Shown piece after piece: positions 1 through 61,960 of a stretch of DNA of 64,000 bases. Numbering within the stretch: position 1 is the stretch's first letter; every line of letters begins with the position of its first letter. The stretch comes from Eledone cirrhosa (lineage: Eukaryota). The translations under genes and the position numbers were made by a program. The stretch is from NCBI GenBank assembly GCA_964016885.1, contig OZ024741.1:83886001-83950000 (forward strand). Reading direction: 5' to 3'. The notes below the pieces were generated by a model. That model saw only the letters and a program-made list of their open reading frames with translations. It had not been told where the DNA came from and made no database searches.

Positions 1-167
1 TACTTTAGGCACAAGGCCACCAAATACCCAGTGCATTACTGGTACTTTATTTTATCGATCCCGTAAGGATGAAAGGCAAAGTTAACCTCAGCGGGATTTG
101 AACTCAAACCGTAAAGGGACGTAACTATGCTAGAAAGCATGGCGTCCAACCCTCTACAGATACTGCC
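1..167 (-). mobile_element. tRNA-derived SINE (MetaSINE-like core), family A
   Basis: Reverse complement matches the copy at 10503-10689: A-box-like TGGCAGTAT, B-box-like GAGTTCAAATCC, core CCTTTCATCCTTACGGG.TCGATAAAATAAAGTACCAG. Confidence 0.8.
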
Positions 168-204
168 ATGTAATAATAATAATAAGAAGAAGAAGAAGAA
201 GGAA

Positions 205-1153
205 GAAGTAGACGCACGTATGGAAAAGCCTCTGTATGGAAAATACCCAGAACGAGCTAACAATCCTGATGTTGACAAAACTTTAACCCATCAGCGGTTG
301 GCATCCTCTGGACTGAAATCGGAGACTGAAGGACTGATTATATCAGCACAAGATCAGTGTCAGCCAACAAAAAATTACCAACCCAACATAATAAAAAATG
401 GATGTAGCCCATTATGCCGTGTATGTAAAAAACAACCAGAGACCATTGACCATATAATTTCAATGTGCAGTCCTATAGCTCCAACCGAATACCTAAACAG
501 GCATGACAGCGCTGCACAATACATACATTGGATAATGTGTAAGCATTTTGACCTGCCCCACCAAAAGAATTTGTGGGAGCATCAACCAACTCCCATACTT
601 GAAAAAGATGACATCTCAATCTTGTGGAACTTTAGCATCCAAACTGACAGAAAAATAGATGCAAATAGACCTGATATAATACTGAAGTACTTTAAAAAGA
701 GGGTATGCCTGCTAATAAATATGTCCGTTCCAATAGACAAGAATGTATCTATGAAAACATTTGAAAAATTGAGCAAGTATAAGGACCTGGAGAGAGAAAT
801 TGGAAAAATGTGGAAATTGAGAACTAAAACAATACCAGTGGTTGTAGGCTCTCTAGGAATGATACCTAAGGGATCTAATGATTACTTATCGCAAATCCCA
901 GGAAACCCGCGTATAGGAGAAATACAAAAGATAGTACTTATGGGAACTGGCCATATACTAAGGAAGATTCTGTCAATATAAGTACATCACAAGTCAAAAC
1001 ACCTAAAGATGCATGTGTGAATATGTATGTTCTTTGTTGAACATGGCGGACCTTGTTGTCTCTTTAGGTCACCGGTTGTGACTTGGTGATAACTCGTATG
1101 AACATAAAGCAATATAAATGCAGCTGTAATAATAATAATAATAATAATAATAA
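205..1153 (+). mobile_element. 5'-truncated R4/Dong-like non-LTR retrotransposon (REL endonuclease C-terminus, 3' UTR, (TAA)n tail)
   Basis: ORF 127-981 has CCHC knuckle CRVC..HIISMC, RHD, RPDI, K..KY and IPVVVGSLG motifs of RLE LINEs; stop at 981; (TAA)n at about 1127-1153. Confidence 0.85.
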
Positions 1154-8754: not shown

Positions 8755-11091
8755 CTATCCGTTAGGGTATAACGTGGGGCTGTAATACAGGAAAGTTTTA
8801 TGCAATTTATGTTTACAAGCCAAAATTGCCTCAGATTTTTTGTTTAAGATGTGGTCTGTAGCGTAGAGTATTTCCAGGGCCTCAGTGGCGCAGAGGTCAC
8901 ATGGTCTTTTATTTCCGTTATACGATCTAGCCCTAGCTAGGATCTCCCAGTGTAACTTATTTTGGGTGTCGTTGTCTTTTAGACTCCAGATATAAGCTGA
9001 AAGTGACGTCATATTCCTTCTTAGAGGGTAACGAAAAGAATGGGTATGCATGTAAAGACGCTGCTTGAAACTATTGGCGGTTAACCCTATGTAGGCCCTA
9101 CGGGACGTGGGTGTTACAACCTTACATTTGTAGACAATGTTACTAGAGAGACATTTCCCGGATAGGGGGCAATCAGCCCGATTCCTACAATTACAGTTAG
9201 TACTACCTACAGGGTTGCACGTGTTCCTACGGCTAGGTAGTTTAGCTAAATTTGAAACTGTGATGTTATGTGTAAGGTTAGGAGTCGTAGAGTAAGAAAT
9301 GTTAATAGTATTTCTATTAAAAATGTTATTATATTTATGTGTAGGGGGAAAATGCTTCGTAATAAGGGAAAGAAAGATCTTAGCTAATGGTGTGGCCACC
9401 TCCATATTATATGGTGGGTTAAACCAACAAATGCGACGGGATCTATTTCTTCTAGGTCTATTTTCGTACACTGTATATGCTACCTTATCGACAAATCCAC
9501 TTCGAGCAAGAGCTTCATTGTAATAAGTGGAATGGTCGTTGAAAATGCGCTCGTTGCTGGAAAGACGGGAAAGCCTCAACGAAACGTTTCTTACCAGGTT
9601 CTTGGTTATGCTGGCAGGATGGTTGGAATGCTTACTTATGTAATTAAGCGTATCATTCGGCTTTCTATACGGGTAATACAACCCATTCAATAAATTGAGG
9701 GTAACGTCGAGGTAATTAACGACCGAGAGATTGGCCTCAACCTGTATAGAGAGGTTGAAGCCTTTAAAGAAGGCTGTGAGTTCTTTTCTGAACCTGTCGC
9801 AAGCACGAGGTCCGCACTTAGTCATGGTCAAAAGACCATCGTCACGGTACAAACCACCGCCCGCGTTGGCGAATTCGTCCTTGATAGAGAAAAGAAGGAA
9901 AAGGCCAATAAGATCAGTAACCTCCGCAGAGTCACTGGCGCCCATACTCACGTCGAATGGGGTACTATTGGATTTTTTAATCCAAATAGAGTCGTCGAAA
10001 TTAATCACCGTCTTTCGGGCATTAAGGATGACATCAACTTCAAAATCCTTAACCACTGTGAGTGTTTTAGCGAAATTGATAGCTCTAAGGAGAAGTGGTA
10101 AAGTGATGGAGGAGTAGTAACTGTTGATGTCGAATTGGATAAAACGGCAATGTTCCTTGTTACATATGCCGTTGAACCAATCAATCACCGCGAAAGAATT
10201 GTTCCACAGTGCGAGAGGGGCCAAACATCTAATTTCAGGTATAATTCTATCAAGAATCGTTTTACTAAGTCTACCTAAATCGGACTTCGTAGGGTTAATA
10301 AGCCGAATAGAGGGGTTGTTCGGAAAATTGGATTTGTGATCCTTCAGGGTAAAGTGGGGAGAGATAGGGTCCAGAGGTTCGGTCCGGTCCAGGATGTTGA
10401 GATCAGATGTGATTTTAAACCCAGCATCGTTGATTTCATTGATGACGCACCGATTAGTTTTACGGTAATCCTTAGTTACAGCATTATGTAGTAGTTGATG
10501 GTGGTGTGGTGGATTGGCAGTATCGGTAGAGGGTCGGACGCCATGCTTTCCAGCATAGTTACGTCCCTTTATGATCTGAGTTCAAATACCGCCGAGGTTG
10601 ACTTTGCCTTTCATCCTTACGGGGTCGATAAAATAAAGTACCAGTAATGTACTGGGTAATTTGCTGGCCTTGTGCCTAAAGTAGAAACAATTATGTAGTA
10701 GTTGATGGTAAGTACTGCGCTCCACTTGATATAGGTTGCCAGTTTTGTCGGAATGGACGTGCACGACGTTAGAATCCTTAATAAAACGAATTCTATTCTT
10801 CAGGTCTAGCTGGAAGGAATTGCTCCTATTCCGAAATTTGATATTCCGAATGAGTTCCAAGACATCATTTTCGAAGGGTAGCAATGCTGGGTTCCACGGA
10901 GGGTTATTATAAGTTTTAAATCCAAATTTATCCTGTTTGCTGTCTGCTTTTCGCGGATTATCTAAATAAAAGGCACGCCAACGCAACCTTTTAATGAACG
11001 CGTCTGTTTTCTGTATCAGGAGTTTTAGGTATGGTTTCCTGCTTGGTACGGGTATGTTCTTTGTAGAAATATTCAGATGTTGTTTCTGCAT
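8755..11091 (-). pseudogene. Naiad PLE RT-GIY-YIG ORF (709 aa after removing the SINE insertion)
   Basis: N-terminal KNIPVPS..FIKRLRWRA; RT motifs FDINSYYSSI, MGASDSAE, YRDDGL, YLDVTLNL; CNCR..CPL.GKCL; IVYKC..YIGLT; CDLC..E..LNKKSE. Manual translation across the SINE-free junction stays open. Confidence 0.92.
10503..10689 (+). mobile_element. Young SINE family A copy with 20-bp TSD
   Basis: TSD ATTATGTAGTAGTTGATGGT at 10483-10502 and 10690-10709; A and B boxes present. Confidence 0.92.
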
Positions 11092-11235
11092 GATGAATAT
11101 AAGTCAGTAGAGTGCTCAACCGAAGGAGCCAAATAGTAATAATAATAAAATTGAAGACTAAAATCCAAAGAGGGCTCGATAAGGAAAATATATATCAAAT
11201 ATATAAGAACCGTAGAGCAAATATTTATTAAAATA

Positions 11236-11311: not shown

Positions 11312-12207
11312 AAACGCAGAACTGGATATTTCAAAAAACGTTGCAACCGGAGGAAGACAGGAAGACGATACTTTGGTTCGTGGTAACGTTCGCTGGCAAA
11401 GAACGGGAAAAAACGAATAATACGTCATTAATAGAAGCGGTGAAAAACAATTACGCGCAAAGGCAAAACCACGTTTATGGTATAAAAGAGGTCGTAGACT
11501 AATGTTCTCTTAGGTGGTGCATAGAGACGTTCTCTGGCAATGAACGAAAAAACGAAGATAATAAGTCATATGTGAGCGTGAAGAACAATAGCACGCAAAG
11601 ACAAAACCACGTAAATGGTATAGCAGAAATCGTAGACTAAAATTCTAACTAGGAGACCAAATGAATCTCCGCTACAGAGTTAAGAACAAAGTAAATAAAT
11701 ACAATACAGAAATAATAGGAACAAATAAATACATACACGCAAACAGATACGTACATACACAAGGATACGCAAAACCTTACCATGGGTATACAAAACCACG
11801 CACATATAAATATGTGTGTGTGTATGCTTGTGTACAAATAAATAAATAATTATATAAACGTATATAAGTAAATAAATACGTATATAACAAGCGCACACGC
11901 ATACCTACATATAAATACACGAATGTTCGGAGACGTAAGTCAACTAAAACAAGAAGTACACATATACACACACCCACCATACGTACGAACCTGCACACTC
12001 ACGCGGACGCAAAACTCCCGTATACACATAGCCAAACCCTAAATACCAGAATATGTAAAAATTATACGCTATAACAGTCAAATATACGTACGAGAAGGTA
12101 TACATACCTTCACAAAACATACGGGTAATATATACTTACCTATACAAATACGTAAAGGAATAAACAAAACATATCGTCGCATTTGTTGGTTTAACCCACC
12201 ATATAAT

Positions 12208-12858
12208 ATGGAGGTGGCCACTCCATTAGCTAAGATCTTTCTTTCCCTTATTACGAAGCATTTTCGCCCTACACATAAATATAGTAAAATTTTTAAAAGA
12301 AATACTATTAAAATTTCTTACTCTACGACTCCTAACCTTGCACATAACATCACAGCTTCAAATTTAGCTAAACTACCTAGCCGTAGGAACACGTGCAACT
12401 CTGTAGGTAGTACTAACTGTAATTGTACGAATCGGGCTGATTGCCCCCTATCCGGGAAATGCCTCTCTAGTAACATTGTCTACATATGTAAGGTTGTAAC
12501 ACCCACGTCCCGTAGGGCCTACATAGGGTTAACCGCCAATAGTTTCAAGCAGCGTCTTTACATGCATACCCATTCTTTTCGTTACCCTCTAAGAAGGAAT
12601 ATGACGTCACTTTCAGCTTATATCTGGAGTCTAAAAGACAACGACACCCAATATAAGTTACACTGGGAGATCCTAGCTAGGGCTAGATCGTATAACGGAA
12701 ATAAAAGACCATGTGACCTCTGCGCCGCTGAGGCCCTTGAAATACTCTACGCTACAGACCACATCTTAAACAAAAAATCTGAGGCAATTTCGGCTTGTAA
12801 ACATAAATTGCACAAAACTTTCCTGTATTACAGCCCCACGTTATACCCTAACGGATAG
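12208..12858 (+). pseudogene. Inverted duplicate of the Naiad GIY-YIG endonuclease region
   Basis: 216-aa ORF nearly identical to the C-terminus of 8755-10224. Confidence 0.9.
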
Positions 12859-13950: not shown

Positions 13951-14378
13951 TAATTCAAAATATTAACAAAATAGATATTCTTGTGATCAAGTATATTTTA
14001 TTATACATATTTCAGAGGTACTGAGTTAAGTTCAACAGTACGTCCTCATCAGATAAAATAAGATGATACATGACATACCCTGACATAGTAGATGGTTAAG
14101 ATTCAGTCATGGTAGTATGACCATGACTGAATCTTAACCATCTACTATGTCAGTGTATGTCATGTATCATCTTATTTTATCTGATGAGGACGTACTGTTG
14201 AACTTAACTCAGTACCTCTGAAATATGTATAATAAAATATACTTGATCACAAGAATATCTATTTTGTTAATATTTTGAATTAATATTAATAACTCTGGAA
14301 AACCATTTAACTGTTGAGTGCTTCCAATCTATTGTAAAATTCATTCTTTGATTTATTCATTGAACCTTGTTTAACTTT

Positions 14379-22413: not shown

Positions 22414-22985
22414 TAGGTACGTTATTCCGGGTTTAATCGGAGGTAACCACAGTAAGTGAGGTACTCAATACTTAGCAGAGTATAAAGGTTTTAAAATATA
22501 GATGAGTTTCTGCAGGACTAGAACTGTTTCATTCTTTAGAAATCATCAGGAATCTGACTTTCCAAAAATAAATGTTGTGATATTTATATCGTTTCAGGTG
22601 GTAGGAGAGGGTGAGTAGTGGGATGGGTGAAGGTCATTGGTTGAAAGTTAAGGGAATTCATTAAAAGCTTATTCTTTAAGTCTATAGTTTATATTTAGAG
22701 TAACAAAGACAGAAAGGATTCTATAAACAAGTTCAGAATGGGATGCCACTCCTTATTCTTAAGTTTCGCTTAAGCTAACAATGCCTATATTTCAGGTGTC
22801 TATAAGATGGTTGGAGGTCGGTCATGGTTGATGGATTTAAAGAAAAGGGAGATTCTTTAAAAGCTAATTCTTTAAAGCTCTACTTAGAGTGACAAAGACC
22901 AAGAGAATTCTATAAACCAGTTCAAAATATCGGGTGCCTATCATATCATTATTGTTATATTTCTCTTAAGCTATATTCCAGGTGT
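22414..22985 (-). mobile_element. PLE pLTR fragment (family of 34084-34592) with degenerate HHR at 22505-22555
   Basis: Reverse complement matches 34330-34592; cleavage triplet mutated to GCA. Confidence 0.75.
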
Positions 22986-24994: not shown

Positions 24995-26182
24995 ATACTT
25001 TGGTAGGGTCATGTTGCCAATAAGAAACACACGCGCCAATTGCTTTCACTTCAGTTTATTATATATTTTTAAATTTACAAGTTTATAAATTTATAAATTT
25101 CTGGTTGGTTGGTTGGTTCCACAACCAGATAGTTGTTTATATATAGTCATAGTCCTTTCGTCACACACTCTGTGACCTCTTCAGTGACTGGGGATTCCTT
25201 TCATTGTTTCTGTGCCTCTCCTTTGTTCTGTCCTACGCCATTTTGTTTCTGTGTGTGTGTTGTGTGCTCAGTCTGCGCATGCGCCACGTCTGGGTGTCTG
25301 TGTGTGTTTATGTTCATTTATCTATTTGTTTATTTGTTTATTTATTTACATGTTACTGGTTGGTTGTTTGTTCTATGTGCGTGTGTGTTTTCACTTTGTC
25401 CTTAATTGTAAGTTGTGATGTTGCTATTCCACTCATATTTTCTATTTAAATTTGGTTGTAATTCTTTTATGTTTATTGCCTCTGTAATTTGTCTAAACAT
25501 TGCATCTTTTCGGTGTGTAGATTCTATTTTTATTTCTATGTTCTCTAATTTACCCTTGTGTTCTATCTTAGCATGTTGGTAGAGTACAGATGATTCTTTA
25601 TTATCTTGAAGGTCTCGCCAGTGTTCATTTATCCGTTCCCCTATACTACCAGCTGTCTCACCTATGTACACTATATTTTTGTCTCTACATTGTCCTTCAG
25701 TACATCTTATGCTATACACTACATTTCTAGTTTTACAGTTAATATGGGGGCTTATTTTACAGGTTATACATTTCTTATCTATACATGAGGGTCTTTGAAA
25801 AGGGTATGTCTTGCTAATAAGTGTTTTTACGGAGGTACCTGGTCTTTCTACTATCTTAGTATTGAGTTTATGTTTATTTAGGGCCCTTCTAAATTTGTAG
25901 GCTAGTTCGCCTCTAGGGGTTGTATCGATGAACATTACACTCTGGTATTTATTGCTATCATACCATGAGTTTATTCTATTAGCCTTGTTCCTAGTTCTTT
26001 CTATTCTATTCCAAAATGTGCTCCTATACAAGGGGCAGGTCCCATTTATGTCATTATTTACCATGTTTTCCTATTTGGTTCTGACTCCTCTATACACTCT
26101 GATTCTATCTCTCTGATTGTAGCCAGAGAATTGCATACGGTGGATGAAGTGTTGTATGTGTCTCTCTAGTTCTTCGGGGTTG
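24990..26182 (-). mobile_element. 5'-truncated PLE (non-Naiad) with GIY-YIG ORF 25402-26064 and pLTR
   Basis: C..C..C..NVVYSIRC..YIGET..ERINEH..RQITEA..LNRKYE; HHR at 25145-25189; second copy at 60662-61960. Confidence 0.85.
25145..25189 (-). ncRNA. Minimal type I hammerhead ribozyme in PLE pLTR
   Basis: AGTCA-CTGAAGA-gGTCAC..GTGAC-GAAA-GGAC-TA-TGACT. Confidence 0.75.
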
Positions 26183-26579: not shown

Positions 26580-27352
26580 TACACAAACATGCCCATATGC
26601 AAGTACATGTGAACGCACCTACACACAGCGATATGCATACAAACGAACGGCCACTCATACAAATACATACAGACATGTACTCAGAAACATACGCATATAC
26701 ACAGGGACATAAAAACAGCTCTACAAGCAGAATATGCAGATAGGTAAGAGGTACTTACATAACCATTGTGCCGTGTTTCAGGTTGAGGAGGGATAAGGAT
26801 GGGTGGTAAGGATGTAGAGGGTCTATTTTGTCGGCTGGCGTTTAAAAAAGAAGGGGAAGTCATTTTAGCCATCGGGTATTGAGACTGGCTTAAGGTATTT
26901 GAAAGTTGCAAAGTTTTTGTGCATGCAGTTCGGGCAGTGTTCAGAGAGTTTGAACAGTAGCGGGTGCTTGGCGAATAAAATTTCGTAGCTCTCTGAGACA
27001 CAAAGGTCGCAGCACTTGTGTCCTCCGTTGTATGGGCGCGCTTAGTGGAGTATTTTCCATTTAAGCGTGAAGGGGGTGGAGTCCTTTTGAGGTCCCAAAC
27101 ATAGGAGGCGAGTCTGGTTTGATTTGTCCGGTCTTCTAAAGGAGTGGGTATGGGCATACCAACAGGTCTTAAAGTTATAGGCAGTCATGCCGATGTAAGT
27201 CTTTTTGTTGTTGCAATCATCGGTGCCTGAGATGAGATCGCATTTGTATACGATAAATACCACAACATTTATTTTTGGAAAGCCAGATTCCTGATGATTT
27301 TTAAAGAATGAAACAGTTCTACTCCTGTAGAATCTCATCTATATTTTAAAAC

Positions 27353-27356
<4 letters not shown>
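26580..27356 (-). mobile_element. Truncated Naiad PLE (GIY-YIG remnant ~26880-27255) with 5' inverted pLTR piece carrying an HHR (27285-27335, +)
   Basis: VYKCD..YIGMT..FK..HTHSF..LASYVWDLK..WKIL..CDLC; the adjacent segment matches 34425-34520. Confidence 0.75.
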
Positions 27357-27406: not shown

Positions 27407-30158
27407 ATTAAATAAATGGAAACTATATTTATAAAACCATATTTATTTCGTTATATATATTTCAGGGATATCATATTAACAATATTTTATGCCATCTTCA
27501 GACAAAATACAATATAAACAGTCTTATAAATAAATAGATACGACATACCTTTCAATCACCTTGCATTTGGGAGGTTGATTTGGTAGTAAAAAATATTGTG
27601 GACAGTTGTAAAAAGAAAGAGATAAAGAGAGAAAGAAAGAGAAACGAAGAAAAAGAAGAAATGCATGTGACTAAATAGAGGGATATAGAAAGATAGATAA
27701 AGAGAAGAACTTCATGTAAAGAAACAGAGAGAAATATATATATAGAGAGAGGAAAAAAGAAAGAGATAGATAGAGATAGATAGAGAAATTTGGAAGTTGA
27801 GTATCGGTTGATACATTTATTTATTTATTTATTTATTTAGCTCTAGTATTAATGTAAAGAGAGATGTATGTAGTTAAGAGAGAAAATAGCCGTTATATAG
27901 AGAGAAAAAAGAGAAAATGAAAAAGAGAAAATGAAACATAACCAGACATAAACGATGCAGAATTTAAAACCGCTATGTTTTATCCGTAGAAAATATTAGT
28001 TCGTATAAAACAGGCATTATAATGTAAGTACCAGTATTCATGAATGAGACATGTATCTATAATGTGTGAAAAGTAATGATCTTATGTCTAGTTTTTAAAA
28101 ATTCATATGTTTATATCATAATTATAAACAAACTCCCAATTCACACGAAAATATCACATAAAATTCAAGTATACATATATGTGTGTATATATACACATAT
28201 ATATATAGAGTCTATATTAATTTTAACAATACTATTCTTGTCTTTATTCTACCTGATTGTCGATCAAGCAGAAATAGAGAACAGATTTCAATATATTAAT
28301 AAAAATAAAAATAAAAATAAAAATAAAAATAAAAATAAAAATATCAGAGACAAGAAAATAAATAAATAAATAAACAGAAAACTAAAACATTTAATATTAA
28401 AAATAAAAAATATTATAAAATATTAAGAAATATTAAAAAATAATACAAATAAAACAGAGATCAGCCTTTCAAAGTTAATTGACAATATATTGCCAAGATC
28501 ATCATAAGCATCAGAGTCGAAACAGATAAAACAAAAATTGTTTACCAAATCCTGTCTAGCAGAAATCATTCCAAAAGTTTAGGATACCCATTTGGTCTAC
28601 ATATGTTCTTATATATAATATAGAAGTTTATCTAGTTTAAAATTTAATTCGATATATTTGGAGCATCAGCTTTTAGAGTAGTTTAATTATTCATGAAGAA
28701 TGTTTTAATAAAAAGAATGTTTTAATAAAAAGAAGAAATCGAAAGATTTATCGGCTAGTTTCATAAATAATTACAAATCAAATCAAAACAAACATAATTA
28801 CATTTTAAATTTAAATTTATATTTAAACGTTGAGTTCAATCTATGTCTGCAGCAACTGAATAAATTTGTCCGTAGATTAAGGGAATTTTTAGATTTTAGT
28901 ATAAAGAATATCTCCTCCGAACAGAGGTCACATGTCTCAGAGGATGAATTAAAAGGAATCCCCCTTGAAACTATATTCCAAGTCGTCGAATATCTAACGT
29001 TATCATGCCTAAGTTGCCAGAGTACGCCTGATAGTGCTGTTGAAGATTTTCTGGATGGATCTGTGAAAGAATTCCTGTGGTTGTTATAGCGAAGTTTAAA
29101 TTCCGTCGATGTAGAACCAACGTAGTTAAAAGAATTAACGTCCGTTTTAACATTACAGTTGTATATTATATTTTTAACTAAGCAGTTGTTATTTAACGGA
29201 CATTTAGATCTATCTCTACAGTTACATTTGTTAACTTGGATATTATTTATGCTATTATCGCTAGGTTTTAAGTTCCTGTTATTTATTCTATTAATATTTT
29301 GCGCTAAATTTTTGGTGGATGAGTAGGTTAGTTTTATAGTATGTCTATTGAAAATTGAGTGATACCTATGTGTTCTAGGGAAGCGATTATCGAGAGCTTT
29401 AAAAAATAGTTTAGCAATGTGGGTTTTAATGTTTAGTGAGAAAGGGGGGGCAAACCATATTATATTCCTAGTTCTATTTCTTTTATGGCTTTTGGAATTA
29501 TTGTAATGCTTTCTATTATAGTTGTTAAGGTTGTGGCCATAATTAAAATAGTTGTTATTTTGTTTAATTTGTTTATCATTATCTATGTACATAATTTTAT
29601 CACTATATCCTGCTCTAGCTAACGCTTCATTGTAATAATGGGCTTTTTCGTCGAAAATCTTTTCATTAGATGAGATTCTAGAGATACGTGATTGAACAGA
29701 GTTTACTATAGTATTTTTAACAGATTTGGGGTGGTTAGAGTTAAAGCTGACATAGTTTAAGTTTTCATTCAACTTGTGAAATGGATAGTGAAGACATGTG
29801 TTGAGATTTAATGTTATATCTAGGAAGTTGACTATTCTATGGCTATTCTCAATTTCTATTTTTAGATTAAAGTGATTAAAAAATTGTGTAATTTGTTTTC
29901 TTTTTCTATTTAGTTCAGAGTTATTATTATCAATAAGTAAAAGCATGTCATCTCTATATAAACCTCCGGTAGTACCAGGTATTTTCCTATGCAGCGAATT
30001 GATTAAAAATAAGCCCACAAGGTCAGTTACCTCAGCTGAGTCGGATGATCCCATAGTAATGTCAAAATTGTTATCTCTATCTGCTCGGGTCCATAGTTGG
30101 TCATTAAATTCTATCAATGTTTTCCTAGCCGATAATATAATGTGCATTTCATTGCTAG
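27404..30158 (-). mobile_element. 5'-truncated Naiad PLE; ORF 28798-30147 (RT C-terminal half plus GIY-YIG)
   Basis: MGSSDSAEV, YRDDML, FLDITLNL, CNCRDRSKCPL, IIYNC..YVGST, CDLCSEE; 3' pLTR ends at (TA)n. Confidence 0.9.
27444..27509 (-). ncRNA. Type I hammerhead ribozyme in Naiad pLTR
   Basis: TATTTTGT-CTGAAGA-stem II-GAAA-TATATA-TA-ACGAAATA. Confidence 0.75.
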
Positions 30159-30161
30159 TTA

Positions 30162-30683
<522 letters not shown>

Positions 30684-33706: not shown

Positions 33707-34043
33707 TAGATAGGGAGAGAGAAAGTGAGATGTCCCGTTACATTTCAAAGCCACTTAGATGTACATGCCTAGAGCTTAATTTGTGAAGTAGTTATTAAAA
33801 TATAATTTATGAAAAGTAACAGGAGAGACCACAAATATATTTGGACTAACACCCACAAGGTCACTATAACAACACCTCATATGTCATTTATAACCTACCA
33901 CATTTATCATAAAAACTTTTGCATTATACTTCATCTGAATTCATTTTTCTTTAATTCTTAAAAGGTTTTAGATTCCACACGCACACACACATACACATTA
34001 ACATATACACCCGTAAACATACATGCTCATGTATGCACACATC

Positions 34044-34080
<37 letters not shown>

Positions 34081-34083
34081 ATA

Positions 34084-34592
34084 TAGTTTTAATATAGATG
34101 AGATTCTACATGATTAGAACTGTTTCATTCTTTAGAAATCATCAGGAATCTGGCTGTCCAAAATAAATGTTGTGGTATTTGAATGTGTTCAGGTTGTAGG
34201 AGAGTGGGAAGGGTGGAGGTCATTGGTTGAAAGAAAAGGGAATTCATTAAAAGCTAATTCTTTAAGGGTATAATTTATATAAATTATAACCTTAAAGTAT
34301 TAGCTTTTAATGAATTACCCTTTATTTAACTTTAAAGAATTAGCTTTTAATGAATTCCCTTTTCTTCCAACCAATGACCTCCACCCATCCCACTCCCCAC
34401 CCTCTCCTACCACTTGAAAAGATATAAATACAACAACATTTATTTTGGACAGCCAGATTCCTGATGATTTCTAAAGAATGAAACAGTTCTAGTCCTGTAG
34501 AATCTCATGTATATTAAAACTTTTATACTCTGCTATGTAACGAGTACCTTACTTACTATGGTTACCTCCGATTCAACTCGGAATAACTTACC
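34084..34592 (+). mobile_element. PLE pLTR with inverted 5' copy, two HHRs (34101-34151 minus; 34455-34505 plus)
   Basis: 34084-~34265 is the reverse complement of ~34330-34520; (TA)n flanks. Confidence 0.8.
34455..34505 (+). ncRNA. Canonical type I hammerhead ribozyme
   Basis: AGATTC-CTGATGA-tTTCtaaaGAAt-GAAA-CAG..CTG-TA-GAATCT; all three stems pair and the cleavage triplet is GUA. Confidence 0.85.
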
Positions 34593-34629
34593 TATATATA
34601 TATATAAACTAGAAATTGATTGACATATA

Positions 34630-37600
34630 CATATGCAAATGAGATTAATCACCTCATTTACACAGACGAGAGAAGTATATATTCTCGCCTGTCTGCTAGT
34701 CCAGCAGTCTCAAGCGGTGGGAGGGATCGTTCTGACGAAGGCCAGTTAAGCCTGAAATGCATAGACGGCTGCCCCCCTTGGTTCTGCTGAACATCACCAG
34801 AGGGCGTTAGCCCCCCGCTGTTTGCATAACTACAGCTTCCTAAAACTGTATTTCTTTGGAGATACTAAATATTTATACATATTGTATAAAGCTATGCTTG
34901 AAGCGAAATCCTATTTCTTCTTTATTATAAGTTGAGCCAACTTATGCAGCTTCAACATGCAAATGAGATTAATCAACTCATTTACACAGACGAGAAAAGT
35001 ATATATTCTCGCCTGTCTGCTAGTCCAGCAGTCGCAAACAGTGGGAGGGACCGTTCTGACGAAGGCCAGTTAAATCTGAAATGCATAGAAGGTTGTCCCC
35101 TTTGCTTCTGCTAGACATCACCAGAGGGCGATAGCCCACCAGTATTTGCCTAGCTACGGCTCATAAAACCGTATTTTATTTTAGATACCAAATATTTATA
35201 CATATTGTATTAAGCTATGCTTGAAGCGAAATCCCATTTTTTTTATTATAAGTTGTGCCAACTTATGCAGCTTCATATGCAAATGAGATTAATCACCTCG
35301 TTTACACAGACGAGAAAAGTCTATATTCTCACCTATCTTCTAGTCCAGCTGTCGCAAGCGGTGGGAGGGACCGTTCTGACGAAGGCCAGTTAAGCGTGAA
35401 ATGCATAGACGGTTGTCCCCCTTGCTTCTGCTGGACCCCCCCCCCCCCCAAGTGTTTCTTTAGAGATACGAAACATTTATACATTTTGTATAAAGCTATG
35501 CTTCAAGCGAAATGCTATTTCTTTTTAATATAATTTGAGCCAACTTATGCAGCTTCATATGCAAATGAGATTAACCACCTCATTTACACAGACTAGAAAA
35601 GTATATATTCTCGCCTGTCTTCTAGTCCAGAAGTCGCAAGCGGTGGGAGAGACCGTTCTGACGACGACCAGTTTAGCCTGAAATGCATAGACTGTTGTCC
35701 CCCTTGCTTCTGCTGGATATCACCAGAGGGCGTTAACCCCCGTGTGTTTGCATAGCTACACCTTCTTAAACCGCATTTCTTTGGAGATGAGAAATATTTA
35801 TACATATTTTATAAAGCTATACTTGATGCTAAATCCTATTTCTTTTTTTATTATATGTTGAGCGAACTTCTGCAGCTTCATATGCAAATGAGATTAATCA
35901 CCTCATTTACACAGAAGAGAAAAGTGTATATTATCGCCTGTCCAGCAGTCGCAAGCGTTGGAAAGGACCGTTCTGACGTAGGCCAGTTAAGCCTGAAATG
36001 CATAGACGGCTGTCCCCCTTGCTCGTACTGGACATCACCAGAGGGTGTCAGCCCTCCCGAGTTTGCATACTTACGGCTTCCTTAAAGCGTATTTCTTTGG
36101 AGATACGAAATATTTATATATATTTTATTAAGCTATGCTTGAAGCGAAATCCAATTTCTTTGTATTATAAGTTGAGCCAACTTATGCAGCTTCATATGCA
36201 AATGAGATTAATCACCTCATTTACACAGACGAGAGAAGTATATATTCTCGCCTGTCTTCTAGTCTAGCAGTCGGAAGCAGTGGGAGGGACCGTTCTGACG
36301 AAGACCAGTTAATCTTGTAATGCATAGACGGTTGAGCCCTTGCTTCTGCTGGACACCACCAGAGGGCGATTGCCCACGGGTGTTTGCATAGCCACGGCTC
36401 CCAAAACCGTATTTCTTTGGTGATACTAAATATTTATACATATTGTATTAAGCTATGCTTGAAGCGAATCACATTTCTTTTTATTATAAGTTGAGCCAAC
36501 TTATGCAGCTTCCTATGCAAATGCGATTAACCACCTCATTTACACAGACGAGAGAAGTATATATTATCGCCTGTCTTCTTGTCCAGCAGACGGAAGCAGT
36601 GGGAGGGACCGTTCTGACGAAGGCCAGTTAAGCCTGATATGCATAGACGGTTGTCCACCTTGCTTCTTCTGGACATCACCAGAGGGCGTTAGCTCCCCGG
36701 TGTTTGCATAGCTACGGCTTCCTAAAAGCGTATTTCTTTGGAGATACAAATATTTATATATATAGTATAAAGCTATGCTTGAAGCGAAATCCTATTTCTT
36801 TATATTATAAGTTGAGCCAACTTATGCAGCTTCATATGCAAATGAGATTAATCACCTCATTTACACAGACGAGAAAAGTATATAATCTCACCTTTCTTCT
36901 AGTCCATCAGTCGCAATCGGTGGGAGGGACCGTTCTGACGAAGGCCAGTTAAGCCTGAAATGCATAGACGGTTGTCCCCATTGATTCTGCTGCCCCCCTC
37001 CCCCCCAAGTGTTTCTTTAGAGATACGAAATATTTATACATATTGTATAAAGCTATGCTTCAAGCGAAATCCTATTTCTTTTTAATATAATTTGAGCCAA
37101 CTTATGCAGCTTCATATGCAAATGAGATTAATCACCTCATTTACACAGACGTGAGAAGTATATTTTCTCGCCTGTCTTCTAGTCCAGAAGTCGCAATGAA
37201 ATGCATAGATAGCTCCCCGGTGTTTCCATAGCTACATCTTCCTAAAACCTTATTTCTTTGGAGATACTAAATATATATACATATTGTATGAAACTATGCA
37301 TGAAGCGAAATCCTATTTCTTTTTTATTATAAGTTGAGCCAACTTATGCAGCTTCATATGCAAATGAGATTAATAACCTCATATACACAGACGAGAAAAG
37401 TATATATTCTCACCTATCTTCTTGTCCAGCTGTCGCAAGCGGTGGGAGGGACCGTTCTGACGAAGGCCAGTTAAGCCTGAAATGCATAGACAGCTGTCCT
37501 CCTTGCTCGTGCTGGACATCACCAGAATGGCGTCAGCCCTCCCGTGTTTTCATACCTACGACTTCCTTAAAGCGTATTTCTTTGGAGATCCGAAATATTT

Positions 37601-37934
37601 ATATATATTGTATTAAGCTATGCTTGAAGCGAAATCCAATTTCTTTTTATTATTATTTGAGCCAACTTATGCAGCTTCCTATGCAAATGAGATTAACCAC
37701 CTCATTTAAACAGACGAGAGAAGTATATATTATCGCCTGTCTTCTAGTCCAGCAGACGGAATCGTTGGGAGGGCCCGTTCTGACGAAGGCGAGTTAAGCC
37801 TGATATGCATAGACGTGTGTCCCCCTATCTCCTGATGGACATCACCAGAATGGCGTTAGCTCTCCCAAAGTGTTTGCATAGCTATAGCTTCCTAAAACCG
37901 TATTTCTTTGTAGATTCCAAATATTTATACATAT
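34630..37934 (+). repeat. Tandem array of 11 ~320-bp hammerhead-containing units (retrozyme / satellite-2-like)
   Basis: ATGCAAAT at 34633, 34957, 35277, 35559, 35882, 36196, 36515, 36836, 37116, 37358, 37681; HHR motif in 10 of 11 units. Confidence 0.92.
36926..36978 (+). ncRNA. Best-preserved array hammerhead (unit 8); predicted cleavage after 36966
   Basis: GGGACCGTT-CTGACGA-AGGC cagttaa GCCT-GAAA-TGCA-TA-GACGGTTGTCCC; palindromic stem III ATGCAT. Confidence 0.88.
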
Positions 37935-38241
37935 ACAAATAAAATAAATAATTATATATTCTATGTCAAATCATGCACTTTTTCTTTTTTTGAATTTTAA
38001 AATTTTAATTTATTTATCGATAGCTTTGTAAATATGTTAAATAATTGAATTTTGACGCTTTAATATAGAAAGTAATTTTCCGTTAACAGGGCCAACAAAT
38101 TAAGTAGATAAAACAGACAATATATTAAAGCATGCACAAAATCATAGATACATACATGCATACGTTTATACAAATATACAAGCTCCAAAATTATGTACAT
38201 AAAAACGCACATCATTTTGGAGCTTGTATATTTGTATAAAC

Positions 38242-38351
<110 letters not shown>

Positions 38352-38546
38352 ATACTTGGGGAGGGTCATATTTGCGTAATATTGCCAGAATTAATAATAT
38401 ATATTATATATATATATATATATATGCATACATATATTCATTCGTTCATACGGGTGTGAAAAACACAGTATAGTGCACAGAAAATAATATGAAATATAAG
38501 TTATATGGATTACACTTTAATGCAGTATAATGTACAACGTTGACTT

Positions 38547-40070: not shown

Positions 40071-40478
40071 TTTTTGGGTTTATTTCTCGCCTTTTTCTTG
40101 TCTTTGCATCCCTTTCTATATTTCTACCTTCCTCTATGTCCTATTCTTCTCTAAGTTTATCATATTATTTGTGGTATAAAAACGCTGAGAGTTGGTGAAA
40201 TAAATCACTGCCACTAGAGGAATTGAATAATCAAAACCGTAGCGGTATGTGGCATATCAAATCATATATTTTGTCTGATGAAAACGTTCTTAAACACCAT
40301 TGTACCTTTGAAATATGTATTTTATATAAAATATATTTTTTGATTATGAGAATATTTTTCATTTATTAATATTTTGAATAAGATTAAATACTCAAGGAAA
40401 ATCTGTTGTCGAGTGCTTCTAATCTATTGTAAGATTGTATTCGTTGTATAATCAACGAAACATATTAATCTTTGTTTA
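39971..40478 (+). mobile_element. Solo PLE pLTR with degenerate HHR (40266-40334) and a short 5' inversion
   Basis: CTGATGA..GAAATATGTA; shares GAGTGCTTC.AATCTATTGTAA with 14314-14340; 39971-39998 is an inverted copy of ~40352-40381. Confidence 0.65.
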
Positions 40479-40858: not shown

Positions 40859-42706
40859 TAATAAAAATAATGAATAGAAACAAAGAAACAGTTCCTTATA
40901 TTAAAAAATTCATCATCCTTTCTAGGATATATATGTGTGTGTTGGTATGTATATCATATAGATCTATGTAAAAATGTTATAAGCTATTTTTACTATGCTA
41001 GAGAAAAACTTCCCGTCAAACCATAAATACCAGCACATTTTAAATAGATCAACGGTCAAATTCTCAGGCTCCACAACCAAAAATATACAACAAAATATAA
41101 GTGCCTACAATGCATATAAATGTAAAAGAAACCATGAATATACCACCAACACATCAAACTAACAATAATACTAAAATAAACCACAGCTAACCATCATCTC
41201 ATTCACATACAACAAGTCGAGAAAATTCCACACCTAATTTGACTAACTCCCCTGATATAACATTCACGAAAAATTGTAACTGTAGAAACAAAGCAAATTT
41301 CCCATTAAAAAGAAATTGCTTTATTAATAACATAGTATATAAATGTAAAATTAGCACTAAGGAGTCAACTTATTCATATATAGGAACTACTTCTAACCAA
41401 TTTAAAGTAAGATTTAATACCCACAAACACAGTTTTAAAAATGCCGCATTACGTCCTACAACATCCTTAGCTGAAATAATTAATAATTATAGAAAAAAGA
41501 ATATCGATTATAGTCCTGGAGTGTGCTCAAAAGAGCCACCCCTTATCAAAATAATAGATATGAATGTAGATTATGTTCCCAGGAACTTTTTGAAATAATG
41601 AAATCTAAGGATGTCCTATTAAATAAGCGACAAGAATTAATTATATCGTGCAATCATAGAATTAGAAAAACTTTCAAATATTATAAACCTAATTAATATA
41701 CACTTATATTTTACAAATTATTATAAATAAATTAATATTCTACTACGAAGAACTGCATAATTTTATTTCCCTTTTACAGCTCTCTTTTCCTAAAATTGAT
41801 ATCAATAAGTATACATATAAACTATTTTAATTTCCTGTTATGAATCTAAATTCCTTGTAATCTATATAAGTTTATTTCTCACTAATACATTTATCCCCAC
41901 AAAAAATGTTTTTCATTCGTTTTTAACAACATTCTTTAATAACATCTAACTCTTATTTATCATATCTATATGAATTAATATAAATTTATACCTATAAATA
42001 TACCTATCAATTAAATTAATTTAATTTCTTTTTATAGATCTAAATTCTTTATGTTTTAAATAAGATTGATATTTTTCACCGACACATTTATCGTAAACTT
42101 TTATTCTCCTTAGATTTTAACATTAGCATTATTCTTTAATAACATCACATTTTCGTGTACCTTTCACCGGCTTGACCTATTTTCACCCCCAAAGTAATCT
42201 TTTCATTCAAAATATACTTTCCATTCAAAACTGAAGTCTGCATTCCTCTACCCCTCAATTAAATTTCTACTACTACTATTCTATCAACTTGACCACTTAC
42301 TACTTTTCTATTGGTCAATTCAAAACCTGTTCCCAAACAGACCTATTATATTAAATCTTTGTTGTTTTTTTTCAATAAACAAATATCATTATTTCTCAAG
42401 ACAGCATATATATGTGTAGGTATGTATATTCCCTCTGATAGTTTGTAAAATTTTTACATAGATCTACATGATATACATACCAACACACACATATATCCTA
42501 GAAACGATCGTAAAATGATGAATTTTTTTAATATAAGGAACTGTTTCTTTGTTTTTATTCATTATTTTTATTAATTCATCTTGATTCTGTTTTCCTATGT
42601 TTTTCATCGAAAAGATTTTGAATATATCTTCTCTTTTCATGATATTTGGATTACATTGAGTTCTTCATACTGATTGGACACTACCGTATATTTTGGTAGA
42701 TTTATC

Positions 42707-43012: not shown

Positions 43013-44219
43013 TCCAACGTGCCCTAAAACTCAGTACCCAGGACCTTAGACACCCTAAAGTAAATCAACCGAAACTAAAAGCTCTTCCATACATCTCCAC
43101 ACACAACCCCTCAACAATGAGGCCTTTGACACAATCCTCCAGAACATCCCTGTGTTGAAAAAGGACCATAGAATGAATCAAATCCTACGAGCACACGTTA
43201 TCATAAAGAGCAAAAGACAATCTAAATCAATGAAAAACATCCTAACATGTGCCAAAATACTGCCAACCACAACAACGAAACCCACAGTAAAAAAATGCGA
43301 TAGACCCAACTGTGGCATATGCATCCACCTAATAGAGGGTTCGGAATTATATTTCAAAGAAGGACAACGTTTTATAGTAAAACACAATTTCACATGCGCA
43401 TCAGAAAATCTAATATATGTATTAACTTGCTCAGGTTGTCGAGAACAATACATAGGCCATACCAAAAGCAGCCTCCGCCAACGCATGACTGTCCATAGAT
43501 CCCAAATTAAAATACGGGAATACAGGAAAATACCACTGAGTGAACACATTGATACCTGTGCCGCCCAAAATCATCCCAACATCAGAATCTTTCCCCTCTA
43601 CAAATTTAAAGATAATGCCACCCACACCCCGCGCATCAGCAAGGAATCTTACTTTATTAACAAATACGGACCCCCGTTTAAACACTTCTTCCTAAGACGA
43701 ACCCACAACATACACACGTCAACATACATACCTACATCAGCATACATCTCTATCCACATATAAACACAATGACATACGTAAACACACATGTTCTATAGTG
43801 CAACACAAATATACACAAATTTGCATACCTTTTTATGTCTATAGATATAAACGTGCCGACACACACACATACATAAACGCAAACATGCATTGCACACTAT
43901 TGGGCACATACATATTTGTACACAAGTATTCCAATACGGCAAGGCCTAATGGATTCCTCTTGCAGTACGTACAATCTGGACACCCACACACACCTTGGTA
44001 TTATGCCAATACTATATATCATTTCACACCTTTTATTATTAAGGTTTTTGATGTTCTATTGAGATAATCGTTTTTACTGAAAATATCGAATAATGAACAC
44101 CATTTTACCAGTATCACAAAATTAAATACTGGTCCACCCACACACACACACATTCTCACACACACACACATACATATATACACACACACATACACACGCG
44201 TACATTAACATACAAAGAG

Positions 44220-48326: not shown

Positions 48327-51300
48327 TATTGGAAGATGATTCTATTAGTAGAAATGGGGGAGGGAGTTGTGTGTGCGTGTATATGGGTGTTATGTGTGTT
48401 TGTGTGCGAGTATGTTAAGATGGAGAGAATATATATTTTGTGTGTGTGTATATATGTGTGTAGGAAAGTGATTCTATTAGTAGAAATGGGGAGGGAGTTG
48501 TGTATGTGGGTGTGGGGGTTGTTATGTGTGTGTATGGGTGTTATATGTGTGGGAGTATGATTAGCATGTTAAGATGTATATATATATTGTGTGTGTGTGA
48601 ATGTGTGTGTGTGTGTGTGTGTGTAGCAAAATGATTCCTTTAGTAGGAATATATTTGAATGAACATATTTTCCTTACTTATTCGTATTTGTTCTGTTGTA
48701 TTGTCAGTGCAAACGTATGTTTAGGTTTATTTAGTTGGGGTTTTTATTTTCTAAAGTAGAAGGTGTTATGTGTGTGTGTATGTCATGTTATGGTGTTGAC
48801 ATAATGTATATTAAACCATATTTAATGCTGGTCTATATTTTTGAATAAACATATTTTCCTTATTTATTCGTATTTGTTCTGTTGTATTGTTAGTGCAAAG
48901 GTAAAATGGGAAGACTTGGAATTTGGGTGTCTTATTACTTGCGCAAATGTCTAGATGTGCGCTTAGTGGTATCTGTCTCGTGGTTGGATCTCCTAATTGT
49001 TGGTGATGAACTGTCATTCTCTTTCTGAGTGTGAGTTTAGTTTGTCCTATATAATCTTCATTACATCCTTTAATTTGCATCATTTAATGGCATAAAGAAG
49101 ATTTTTTGATGAGCAAGTGAAGTGATTTTTTACAGCAAAATTTTGTCCTGATTTAAATGTATACGTGTTGCCTTCAATGAAGTGAGTGCAGGTTTCACAA
49201 TTAGAGCGACCACATTTTTTGATACTTGGTTGTGGGTTTGTGGTAGGTAATTTGGCATTGGTGAGTAATGTTTTCAGTGATTTCGGTTGTCTTTTGCTTT
49301 TGATTATTTTGTGTGTTTCAAAGGCTTTTTTCATTCTCGGGTTTTGTTTTAGTAGTGGGATGTTCTTGTGAATAGTGTTGTAAGCTTCCGCATTTCTTGG
49401 GTTGTGTGTTGAGATATATGATAGAATATTGGACGTACCTTGAATTTGTTTCTGTTTTCGTAATTCATCAATGCCTATTGCTTTAGCCCTTTATATTCCA
49501 TTATTTATTAGTAATAGTGGGTACTCTCTCTCGAGTAGAATTTCCTTTAATTCTTGAAGTCTTTTATTTCGCGTTTCATAATTGGAGACAATTGTGCAAA
49601 TTCTTCTTGCTAGGTTAAAAGGAATGTTCGTCTTCGTGTGCTTTGGATGGTTGGAGGTGAATAACAGGTATTGTTTGGAATCTGTTGGTTTGTAGTGTAT
49701 GTCAGTTTCGATATTTGTGTCTTTTTTAAAGATTAAGATGTCCAGAAATGGGAGTTGATCTTGGCTGTATTCCATTGTGAATTGGATGTGGTTATTGATG
49801 CCGTTTATTAAGTTTTTGAAATCCTTCAGTTAGTCGAGTGTTTGGAACCAAAGAATGAGACAATCATCCAAGTAGCGTTTCCAATTCTCTGATAAATATT
49901 TGTGGAAGTTCAATCCGTATTTAGATTTGGACTGTTCATATATCTGGACATCTAAGTATGCCATGACTAAGTTGGCATAATTTGGAGCGGCTTTTGTACC
50001 CATCGCAGTCCCCGATATTTGCTTGTAAGTATTGCCATCGAAATAAAAAAGTTGTTCTGTAAGATGAATTGTAATCCCTCGGTGATGAAGCTTTTTTCTA
50101 TTCTGTCAGGTATCTCATTGGGATATTTCTCTAGCCAGAATCCTATTGCTTCTAGTCCGTATTGGTGTGGGATCGTTATGTAGAGATTCACTACATCGAA
50201 AGACACAATAATAGTGTCGTTGTTGACATGTTTGGGGAGGTGATTTAAGAGGTCCAGATCGTCTCTTACAAGGCTTGGTATGTGTTTGAGAATTGGTTTT
50301 AGTAGTATGTCTATAAAGTTGCTCAGTCTGTGTGTTTCACATTGAGGGCCCGCTACAATTGGTCTTAATTTAAGGTATGTGGGGGTATTGTGTGTTCACG
50401 CAGGCTGAGGTGGATTGTTTACAGGCATCGTTAATTATTTTACACTTGTGGATCTTTGGAAGTCCGTAAAGGTTGCTGGTTTTGTATTCAAAAAGTGTTA
50501 AATAATCGCGTTCATTTTTAGTTAGGTCTTCCTGGTATCGATAAATCAGTGTGTTTAATCGGGTCATTGTTTTTGATTGCTGGTAGTTTTTTACTCTTTC
50601 ATAGTAATTAGTATTTTGTAAGAGAGAGAATATAGAATGTTTATATTTTTCAGCCTCCATAATGACAACAGTGCTTCCCTTGTCCGCTTGCTTAATTATA
50701 ATGTCTGTATTGTTTTTTAGTTCATGGATAATCTACCATTCCCTTCGACTTGGGTTTGGTTTTAGGTTGCGGTAGTTCATGGTATGGGAAGGTAGCTATG
50801 TGGTCACACAATTTGTCCAGAACTCTGTTTCTGCCTTTTGTTGGGTTGTAGCTGCTTTTATTCCGTACAATTGATTCGTCGTTATTCTCCTTGTCAAAGA
50901 ATTCCTCTGTGAGACGTAATTTTCTACAGAAGTGTGATATATCGTCATTTATCTCATTGGGGTTAGAGTATTGTGGTGTTGGTGTGAATTTCAGTCCTTT
51001 GGAGAGAATTTTTACTTGTTGGGCTGAGAGGTTTGTATTTGAAAGGTTGATTATTTTTGGTTTTTCAAAATCGGTTTGTGCCACCGGGTGTTGTGAGTCC
51101 TGTAGCCTTGGTCTAAAAAATGATTTTTCTGGAATGTTTTTTCAATGGTATTATTATATCTAATGGTATTTCCCCAGTTGTTGTGTGGTCTTGTATAGAA
51201 GTTTCGGACGTATTGAGGTTCGGTTTGTTGATAGTCCGGTTTGTAGATTTTGTTCCTTTGTGTGGGTTGGGATCTACGGTTTTGGAACAGGCTCTGTGTG

Positions 51301-60667: not shown

Positions 60668-61960
60668 ATACTTTGGGAGGGTCACGTTGCCAATAAGAAA
60701 CACACGCACCAGCTGCTTTCACTTCAATTTATTATAAATTAAATTATAAATTTAAAAATATTTATACATTTCCGGCTGGTTGGTTGGTTCCACAAACGGA
60801 CGATTGTTCATATATTTTCAAAGGTCTTCCGTCACACATTCTGTGACCTCTTCAGTGACTGGGATTCTGTTTTATGCCTCTCCTTTGTTCAGTCCTAGGC
60901 CATCTTGTTTTTGTGTCTTTTGCGTCCTTAGTTTGCGCATGTGTTACATCCGGGTGACTGTGTGTGTTTTTATTTGTTTATTTATTTATTTATTTATTTA
61001 TATGTTACCAGTTAGTTGTTTGTTCTATGTGTGTGTGTTTTCATTTTGTCCTTAATTGTGAGTTGTGATGTTGCTATTCCATTCATGTTTTCTATTTAAT
61101 TTGGTTGTAGTTCATTTATTTTTATTGCCTCTGTGATTTGTCTAAACATTGCGTCATTTCTGTGTGTAGATTCTATTTTTATTTCTATGTTCTCTAATTT
61201 GCCCTTATGTTCTATTTTAGCATGTTGGTAGAGTACAGATGATTCTTTACTATCTTGAAGGTCTCGCCAGTGTTCATTCATTTAATCGTTCTCCTATGCT
61301 ACGAGCTGTCTCACCTATGTACATTATATTCTTATCTTTACATTGTCCCTCACTACATCTTATGCTATATACTATGTTTCTAGTTTTACAGTTAATATGG
61401 GGGCTTAGTTTACAGATTATGCATGTCCTATCTTTACAGGGAGTTCTTTGAAAAGGGTATGTATTACTAATAAGTGTTTTTATGGAGGTCCTGGTCTTTC
61501 CACTATCTTAATATTTAGTTTAAGTTTATCTAGGGTCCTTCTAAATGTGTAAGCTAGTTCACCTCTAGGTTGTATTGTTGAACATTACACTCTGGTATTT
61601 ATTGCTATCATACCATGAGGTTTATTTTATTAATCTTATTTCTAGTTCTTTCTATTCTATTCCAAAATTTGCTCCTATACAAGGGGTAGGTCCCATTTGT
61701 ATCATTATTTACCATTTATTTTCCCATTTGGTTCTGGTTCCTCTATATACTCTGATTTTATCTTTCTGATTGTAATGGTGGATGAAATGTATGTGTCTCT
61801 CTAGTTCTTTGGGGTTGCGCATGCGGGACACGTTCCTCATCACCTTTACTAAATCCGCAATCAGTATGTTGACTTTGGTGTGATCCGACAATATATGAAC
61901 AACCGCCCGTTTGTGGAACCAACCAACCAACCGGAAAATGACCCTCCCAAAGTATAACAG
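60662..61960 (-). mobile_element. Second copy of the PLE at 24990-26182, with inverted terminal piece at ~61905-61960
   Basis: High nucleotide similarity; NEHWRDLQD..RQITEA; HHR GAAA mutated near 60828. Confidence 0.85.

Follow-up and report, generated by a model that had tools for sequence, protein, structure and literature searches.

What is a short, protein-free tandem repeat with hammerhead ribozymes doing in an animal genome: does it still supply self-cleaving RNA, or is it what was left behind when a mobile element landed and was multiplied in place? The question is raised by an array of eleven repeats in Eledone cirrhosa, within a stretch of 64,000 nucleotides (GenBank assembly GCA_964016885.1, contig OZ024741.1, positions 83,886,001 to 83,950,000 of the forward strand) that we call the window and in whose coordinates positions are given. 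The original prediction for this DNA saw a candidate non-LTR (long terminal repeat) retrozyme locus producing RNAs of about 320 nt, surrounded by the Penelope-like elements (PLEs) that could copy it. The reading proposed here, which we hold with good confidence, is that a dispersed 322-bp protein-free hammerhead element, likely spread by PLEs, left an old copy at this site, which has since been expanded in place and is now largely broken.

The array and its ribozymes

The predicted array of eleven units of about 320 bp is present, its units being 242–324 bp long (Table 1) and 80–95% identical in pairwise comparison. One internal deletion is common to units 3 and 8, two others are found in unit 9, and unit 11 is cut at 37934. 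The differences between units are not assembly noise, since unit-specific stretches (for example 35410–35544 and 37716–38100) are matched exactly by short DNA contigs from one public sample, which is possibly the assembly's own source and in which no single contig spans the array. The expected lack of an open reading frame (ORF) was borne out as well. The longest ATG frame in the family unit has 42 amino acids (aa) and the longest stop-to-stop frame 77 aa, and the GC content of the 322-bp unit is 0.38–0.40.

The hammerhead is of the canonical type I, as had been claimed, and consists of a 7-bp stem I, CUGACGA, a 4-bp stem II with a 7-nt loop, and GAAA. Stem III is short, one A-U pair capped by the palindromic loop UGCA, and the predicted cut lies after AUA. 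Ten of the eleven units had been said to carry the motif; the layout is indeed recognisable in ten, but only unit 8 is fully intact, with base 36966 again the predicted cleavage position. Scored unit by unit, broken cores are seen in units 5, 6, 7, 9 and 11 and a broken stem II in units 2, 3, 4 and 6, and stem I is weakened in unit 10. Two complete hammerheads in succession serve as the criterion for an active non-LTR retrozyme copy; in the array the cores of the consecutive units 1–4 are intact, yet stem II is broken in units 2–4. For the 5′ strand of stem I in unit 8, a fully pairing 3′ strand is offered by each of units 3, 6, 7 and 8.

A dispersed family with the marks of Penelope-like insertion

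The genome search proposed with the original prediction reveals an ORF-less dispersed family. Exact matches to a 23-nt motif from the unit number 1,355 in the 3.0-Gb assembly (control: 0), and a divergence of 4–5% suggests a family of a few thousand copies. Insertion statistics were taken from 85 loci of one chromosome, which hold the first 100 of these matches after five duplicate loci were dropped. The copies are partial tandems of 0.2–2.4 units, often with an inverted 5′-truncated arm, the longest arm measuring 741 nt; most have 1–1.5 units and one hammerhead per arm. Paired core motifs one unit apart gave 20 matches, three in the array and 17 elsewhere, and the latter loci, recognised by two tandem core motifs, reach at most about 2.4 units per arm. 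As this search catches only three of the ten array junctions and only the subfamily to which the array belongs (subfamily A, see below), other arrays can be missed, and the eleven-unit array is the longest found.

The way in which these copies are built points to their mobilisation. All 41 adjacent pairs of opposite-strand arms at the 85 loci are head-to-head. Among subfamily-A arms of at least 88% identity and at least 60 nt, 36 end at unit positions 246–260 and 24 at 284–299, which makes 60 of 85 compared with about eight by chance, and the two end classes lie about 40 nt apart. A microsatellite follows 53 of the 60 canonical ends versus 4 of the 25 other ends, the neighbouring repeat being (TA)n. 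Sorted by end class, the 41 pairs comprise 18 that combine a long with a short end, none with two long or two short ends, and 23 with an unclassed end; the tail is thus confined to one end in 18 of 18 classifiable pairs. Partial tandems, an inverted 5′-truncated copy, a 30–40-bp tail at one end and a bias for microsatellites are described as traits of PLEs (PMC8557442), whose tail has been explained by reverse transcription starting at two internal sites, with uncleaved RNA as the main template (PMC11167929). Such internal starts were seen in vitro for the anole PLE. By analogy, the insertion pattern suggests that a PLE protein would nick AT-rich DNA and begin reverse transcription inside the RNA at either of two sites.

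The arms also carry information about the RNA that was copied. They cross the predicted cleavage bond in 72 of 89 cases, seven of them twice, and none of the 89 starts within positions 128–140; crossing arms are favoured here by the choice of loci, which relied on a motif lying upstream of the hammerhead. Because the inserted copies cross the bond, the template was either a ligated circle or an uncleaved multimer, and a cleaved linear monomer did not serve as such. Private variants that bear on the choice between circle and linear multimer are few: they are shared between tandem units at 6 of 4,561 sites, between inverted arms at 28 of 10,123 and between loci at 73 of 324,550. The three-way sites include one shared by all, three by the tandem pair, and five in which the inverted arm agrees with one of the tandem units.

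Could the unit be the end of a larger, autonomous element? The original prediction had itself pointed to the possibility that it is the pseudo-LTR (pLTR) of an ORF-bearing PLE. In that case the parent would be rare, the dispersed copies would be its truncated ends, and the array would be a satellite grown from one such end. Every PLE insertion trait is present in the dispersed copies, as this explanation demands, and 24 of 57 Xenopus retrozyme families are homologous to catalogued elements, nearly all of them PLE termini (10.64898/2026.07.22.740005). One divergent copy, at locus L059, even runs on its 3′ side into a Penelope-type reverse transcriptase (RT) fragment 21 nt away. The upstream side of the unit speaks against this: the unit-to-unit junction was seen there 63 times, the arms continuing into the unit's own 3′ part, and PLE-like coding fragments, present in 19 of the 85 loci, abut the 5′ side in none (the nearest, a 30-aa fragment, lies 185 nt away). 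Moreover, a true pLTR family neighbouring the array already runs into an ORF in 2 of 19 loci, and the PLE at L059 lacks the unit at its 3′ end. We therefore regard a pLTR origin as unlikely. Since the unit continues upstream into itself and no coding sequence abuts it, the element is non-autonomous on the 85-locus sample. With the insertion signature added, it is, as far as these marks can tell, a non-LTR retrozyme-type non-autonomous PLE.

At L059 itself (positions 601–1549, minus strand) the divergent copy has its own hammerhead variant and lies 21 nt before a 5′-truncated Penelope-type RT/endonuclease frame. This join is either a nested insertion or a chimera.

A life cycle compatible with these observations would run as follows. 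The hammerhead would cut multimers into monomers of about 322 nt, probably as a double hammerhead, host ligases could close these monomers, and the RT and endonuclease of a Penelope-like retrotransposon would likely have spread the element.

Ribozyme fold and compensatory changes

Folding the family consensus as a circle, another check suggested at the outset, gave a strong predicted structure (−109.1 kcal/mol; z −7.0 against 60 shuffles) in which stems I and II form with pair probabilities of 0.68–1.0 and all six hairpins named in the original prediction are present. The array monomers fold more weakly, with −44 to −93 kcal/mol and z −0.6 to −6.1. A highly paired predicted circle that exposes the ribozyme is described for most animal retrozymes (PMC7229834).

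The family falls into two subfamilies that differ within the ribozyme. Stem II is AGGC/GCCU in subfamily A and GAAC/GUUC in subfamily B, and one stem I pair is C-G in A versus U-A in B. Both sides of the pair have changed in three of the four stem II pairs and in this one stem I pair, in 6–10 sequences each. Double-change cells number 39, compared with 14.7 in shuffles, and none of 500 shuffles reaches this value; the set, pre-filtered for an intact core, has 39 sequences, namely 10 of B, 2 array units and, once the second arm of a locus had been dropped, 27 of 33 A copies. From these compensatory changes we infer that the hammerhead was kept under selection in the source elements. In the dispersed copies, changes amount to 26 of 638 in the core versus 406 of 11,205 elsewhere; to judge from these counts, dispersed copies decay neutrally once inserted. 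Subfamily B is the older one, with a unit about 20 nt longer owing to an extra hairpin, and is self-tandem and ORF-less where seen. Its hammerhead has G-C at pair 10.1–11.1 and mostly AUC at the cut site.

These results also bear on the simplest alternative, that the locus is an ordinary AT-rich satellite whose hammerhead look arose by chance. Rfam found no hammerhead at the gathering score in the window and none at E ≤ 10 within 34000–38500, and most units are degenerate, as such an origin would lead one to expect. It leaves unexplained the full canonical type I layout, the strong predicted fold, the dispersed PLE-type insertions and the compensatory changes in stems I and II; being already contradicted by the covariation, it is extremely improbable.

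How the array arose and aged

Stem I of all ten array units in which the site survives has a C-to-T change that only 1 of 58 dispersed copies shows, which argues for one founder copy. The 3′ end of the array coincides with the commonest end of the family, and the array would therefore have begun as a normal insertion. What followed left a pattern of shared variants. Non-CpG variants shared by subsets of units number 31, against a mean of 6.9 and a maximum of 16 in 2,000 draws of 11 dispersed copies, and by these variants the units pair as 3/8, 5/10 and 7/11, likely as after block duplication and conversion. In-place re-insertion of a multi-unit RNA is a possible alternative origin of the growth. 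A single rolling-circle event with independent decay thereafter was also considered and does not fit the variants shared by subsets.

The units differ from the family consensus by 5.7–10.9% (mean 7.5%). For 66 dispersed A copies, a set biased to low divergence, the median is 4.3%, and 13 of the 66 reach 7%. Judged by divergence and shared variants, the array is older than most copies and has likely grown by local duplication. Counted by cells, changes in the array are 4 of 116 in the core versus 157 of 2,034 elsewhere, a difference that is not significant by columns; variable columns (core 3 of 11, stem II 5 of 8) do not differ from the 40% background. A single founder would thus have been inserted, likely been expanded to eleven units by duplication and conversion at the DNA level, and then decayed without clear selection on the ribozyme.

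Twelve dispersed copies carry the array's stem I change, on two haplotype backgrounds and without a common set of array variants. The array was considered as a master copy and rejected, no daughters being detected among these copies.

Is the array a source of RNA?

The part of the original prediction that finds no support is that this locus actively supplies RNAs of about 320 nt: its hammerheads are mostly broken, its divergence is above the typical one, and its fixed variant is missing from the dispersed copies. Each unit starts with the 8-mer ATGCAAAT, a candidate element that we take to be octamer-like. The small nuclear RNA (snRNA) genes of the host offer a comparison. Two motifs are common to the U1 and U2 genes, a proximal one that contains TCAGT, at about −60, and a distal one that resembles CCTCCCTT, at about −250; the best scores of the U1 proximal and distal motif matrices in the unit, 4.0 and 5.6, are at shuffle level. 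An internal promoter of snRNA type was accordingly rejected, the host U1/U2 motifs being absent from the unit. The host snRNA genes are themselves clustered in tandem, with periods of about 2.7 kb for U1 and 2.2 kb for U2 (L036–L055 and L175–L186).

A more elaborate proposal would make the array an active source locus, with an internal octamer-type promoter and with the intact halves of units 1, 8 and 10 cutting their neighbours as double hammerheads to release circles of about 320 nt. No variation among the eleven units is seen in the octamer-like 8-mer (nominal p 0.016) or in a 9-nt stretch that spans stem III and the cleavage site, the stem I strand of unit 8 has the four full partners listed above, the array is the longest found, and for newt satellite 2 an internal promoter of snRNA type is described (PMC2220036). 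The octamer test was one of six, however, and an octamer was seen upstream of only 2 of 12 distinct U1 and none of 7 distinct U2 genes. Core and stem II columns vary like the background, the host promoter motifs do not rise above shuffle level, and the twelve copies with the stem I variant lack a shared set of array variants. An active source is thus very unlikely. A joint reading, which we find unlikely, would have a Penelope-type enzyme produce the dispersed copies as cDNA by going round and round a ribozyme-made 322-nt RNA circle, the array still supplying circles from an internal promoter while intact halves cut broken neighbours. If true, it would be the first genomic record of circular RNA as a retrotransposition template in an animal.

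Returning to the array as an old, locally expanded copy of a PLE-spread element, several points weigh against it, beginning with the choice of loci mentioned above. The survey took in only 85 loci of one chromosome and may have overlooked a rare parent with an ORF. The unit has no DNA similarity to the PLE fragments of the window beyond (TA)n, nor any DNA likeness to 33 loci of a young PLE-like family with 758-aa frames, and nine widened loci contained no partner PLE. The mobilisation foreseen in the original prediction is hence backed by the insertion structure of the dispersed copies; the fragments in the window, lacking DNA similarity to the unit, are not shown to be its mobilisers. The covariation corresponds to about four events between two subfamilies and not to 39 independent ones; with a core-filtered set, it supports the stems and gives no probability. 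Subfamily A has A-U at pair 10.1–11.1, where G-C is highly conserved (PMC4209133), and cleavage in vitro failed for eight of nine dimers of Xenopus retrozymes (10.64898/2026.07.22.740005). Lastly, where 0.9 invariant runs of at least 9 nt would be expected, the array has four (p 0.005), which include the octamer-like motif and the 9-nt stretch. Pure neutral decay does not explain these runs, which may be conversion tracts or the result of weak selection.

Neighbouring elements in the window

Next to the array lies an inverted pair of pLTR fragments from another PLE-like family, which is very abundant and has a hammerhead motif of its own; further fragments of this family occur at 22418–22679 (−) and 27253–27353 (+). 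A 30-mer from it has 8,816 exact matches, 5,443 on one strand versus 3,373 on the other, an excess that may mark a large tandem cluster somewhere. Of 150 matches scored for this family, 18 lie within 758-aa open frames. The frame shows a weak C-terminal GIY-YIG match and motifs that we presume to be RT-like; searches of PDB and Pfam with it gave no firm match. This young PLE-like family is a candidate enzyme source for the 322-bp unit, although the two show no likeness in DNA sequence.

Other hammerhead-like motifs are scattered over the window. A third type occurs at 14052 (−)/14181 (+) and at 40275 (+), as an inverted pair beside (TA)n. Another, at 25130–25200 (−) and 60800–60870 (−), stands just downstream of a GIY-YIG frame (25402–26070, −) and ends in (TA)n; it is likely the pLTR of that PLE. 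Three unit copies about 530 bp apart (23615, 24148 and 24675, −) have CTGATGA near their start and no clear hammerhead fold. The PLE-like fragments at 8755–11103 and 12043–12858 form an inverted arrangement.

Table 1. Features of the array, the window and the related loci (window positions; unit starts and lengths in brackets)
Feature	Position	Strand	Remark
Tandem array, 11 units	34629–37934	+	322-bp ORF-less hammerhead-bearing mobile family, subfamily A
Octamer-like ATGCAAAT at each unit start	34633–34640 (unit 1)	+	invariant in 11 units
Unit 1 hammerhead (34631; 324 bp)	34725–34770	+	single mismatch in stem I, no damage in core or stem II; cleavage predicted after 34763
Unit 2 hammerhead (34955; 320 bp)	35049–35094	+	core intact, damage in stems I and II
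Unit 3 hammerhead (35275; 282 bp)	35369–35414	+	core intact, one mismatch in stem II
Unit 4 hammerhead (35557; 323 bp)	35651–35696	+	core intact, two mismatches in stem II, one in stem I
Unit 5 hammerhead (35880; 314 bp)	35966–36011	+	core position A9 changed
Unit 6 hammerhead (36194; 319 bp)	36288–36333	+	GAAA core and stem II broken
Unit 7 hammerhead (36513; 321 bp)	36607–36652	+	A14 changed, as in unit 11
Unit 8 hammerhead (36834; 280 bp)	36928–36973	+	sole hammerhead with no damage in the core or in stems I and II; cleavage predicted after 36966
Unit 9 hammerhead (37114; 242 bp)	37198–37207	+	remnant of 3′ half only, 5′ half deleted
Unit 10 hammerhead (37356; 323 bp)	37450–37495	+	core and stem II intact; stem I weak, absent from predicted fold
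Unit 11 hammerhead (37679; 256 bp)	37773–37818	+	A14 changed
Array 3′ end	37925–37934	+	about unit position 252, commonest 3′ end among dispersed copies
Inverted pair of pLTR fragments	34085–34590	+ (34461), − (34145)	different, very abundant PLE-like family with own hammerhead motif; not part of array
PLE-like RT/GIY-YIG fragments	8755–11103; 12043–12858; 28798–30165; 41191–41598; 43059–43763; 49080–51141	−; +; −; +; +; −	several families
LINE-type (long interspersed nuclear element) RT	115–3808	+	frameshifts and stops
Subfamily B loci			L061, L062, L064, L065, L072, L084, L115, L129, L137–L139, L147, L153, L157, L171

Comparison with known retrozymes and Penelope-like elements

Metazoan non-LTR retrozymes are described as tandem repeats of about 170–400 bp with a GC content below 45% (PMC7229834). 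At the level of sequence features the family agrees with them, as had been claimed. It shares the short low-GC unit within the 170–400-nt range, the type I hammerhead, the lack of an ORF, the highly paired predicted circle with the ribozyme exposed, and the presence of PLEs in the same genome, here as GIY-YIG fragments in the window and as the 758-aa frames. The one-pair stem III with its palindromic tetraloop matches the descriptions of axolotl HHR_Amex1 and newt satellite 2, and is hence of the amphibian and not of the invertebrate two-pair type (PMC7229834). Further differences are the A-U pair at 10.1–11.1 in subfamily A, the prevalence of copies with 1–1.5 units and one hammerhead per arm, and the sequence itself, which is that of a new family known here from DNA alone. 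No description of it was found in the literature on retrozymes, hammerheads, octopus and cephalopods, and Penelope; the supplements of PMC7229834 and 10.64898/2026.07.22.740005, outside that scope, could list relatives. It is thus likely a new family of a known kind, the animal retrozymes.

With the pLTRs of endonuclease-bearing (EN+) PLEs and with non-autonomous PLEs such as MRC1 (PMC8557442, PMC11167929, PMC4209133) the family shares partial tandems, an inverted 5′-truncated arm, a 30–40-bp tail at one end, the microsatellite bias, a hammerhead upstream of two 3′ ends and an uncleaved RNA template. It differs from them in lacking an ORF, in having a canonical hammerhead with a long stem I in place of a minimal one, and in that the unit is its own upstream neighbour.

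A parallel to the history proposed here comes from retrozymes described as non-autonomous PLE derivatives (10.64898/2026.07.22.740005), which likewise combine dispersed monomers, rare multimers, a link to PLEs and the birth of a satellite when one inserted copy is amplified locally. That study, like the earlier case for PLE mobilisation of animal retrozymes, builds on co-occurrence and pLTR similarity, mainly in vertebrates. In the Eledone family no pLTR homologue was found, and the link rests instead on how the copies are inserted, with an inverted arm, a tail at one end and a microsatellite as target. PLE insertion marks are thus seen with clean counts on an ORF-less hammerhead unit, and the copied RNA was not the cleaved linear monomer. 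The family thereby lends itself to the question whether the template is a circle or an uncleaved multimer, and which PLE enzyme accepts an RNA unlike its own ends, while the array is mainly an example of how a satellite can be born from a single insertion.

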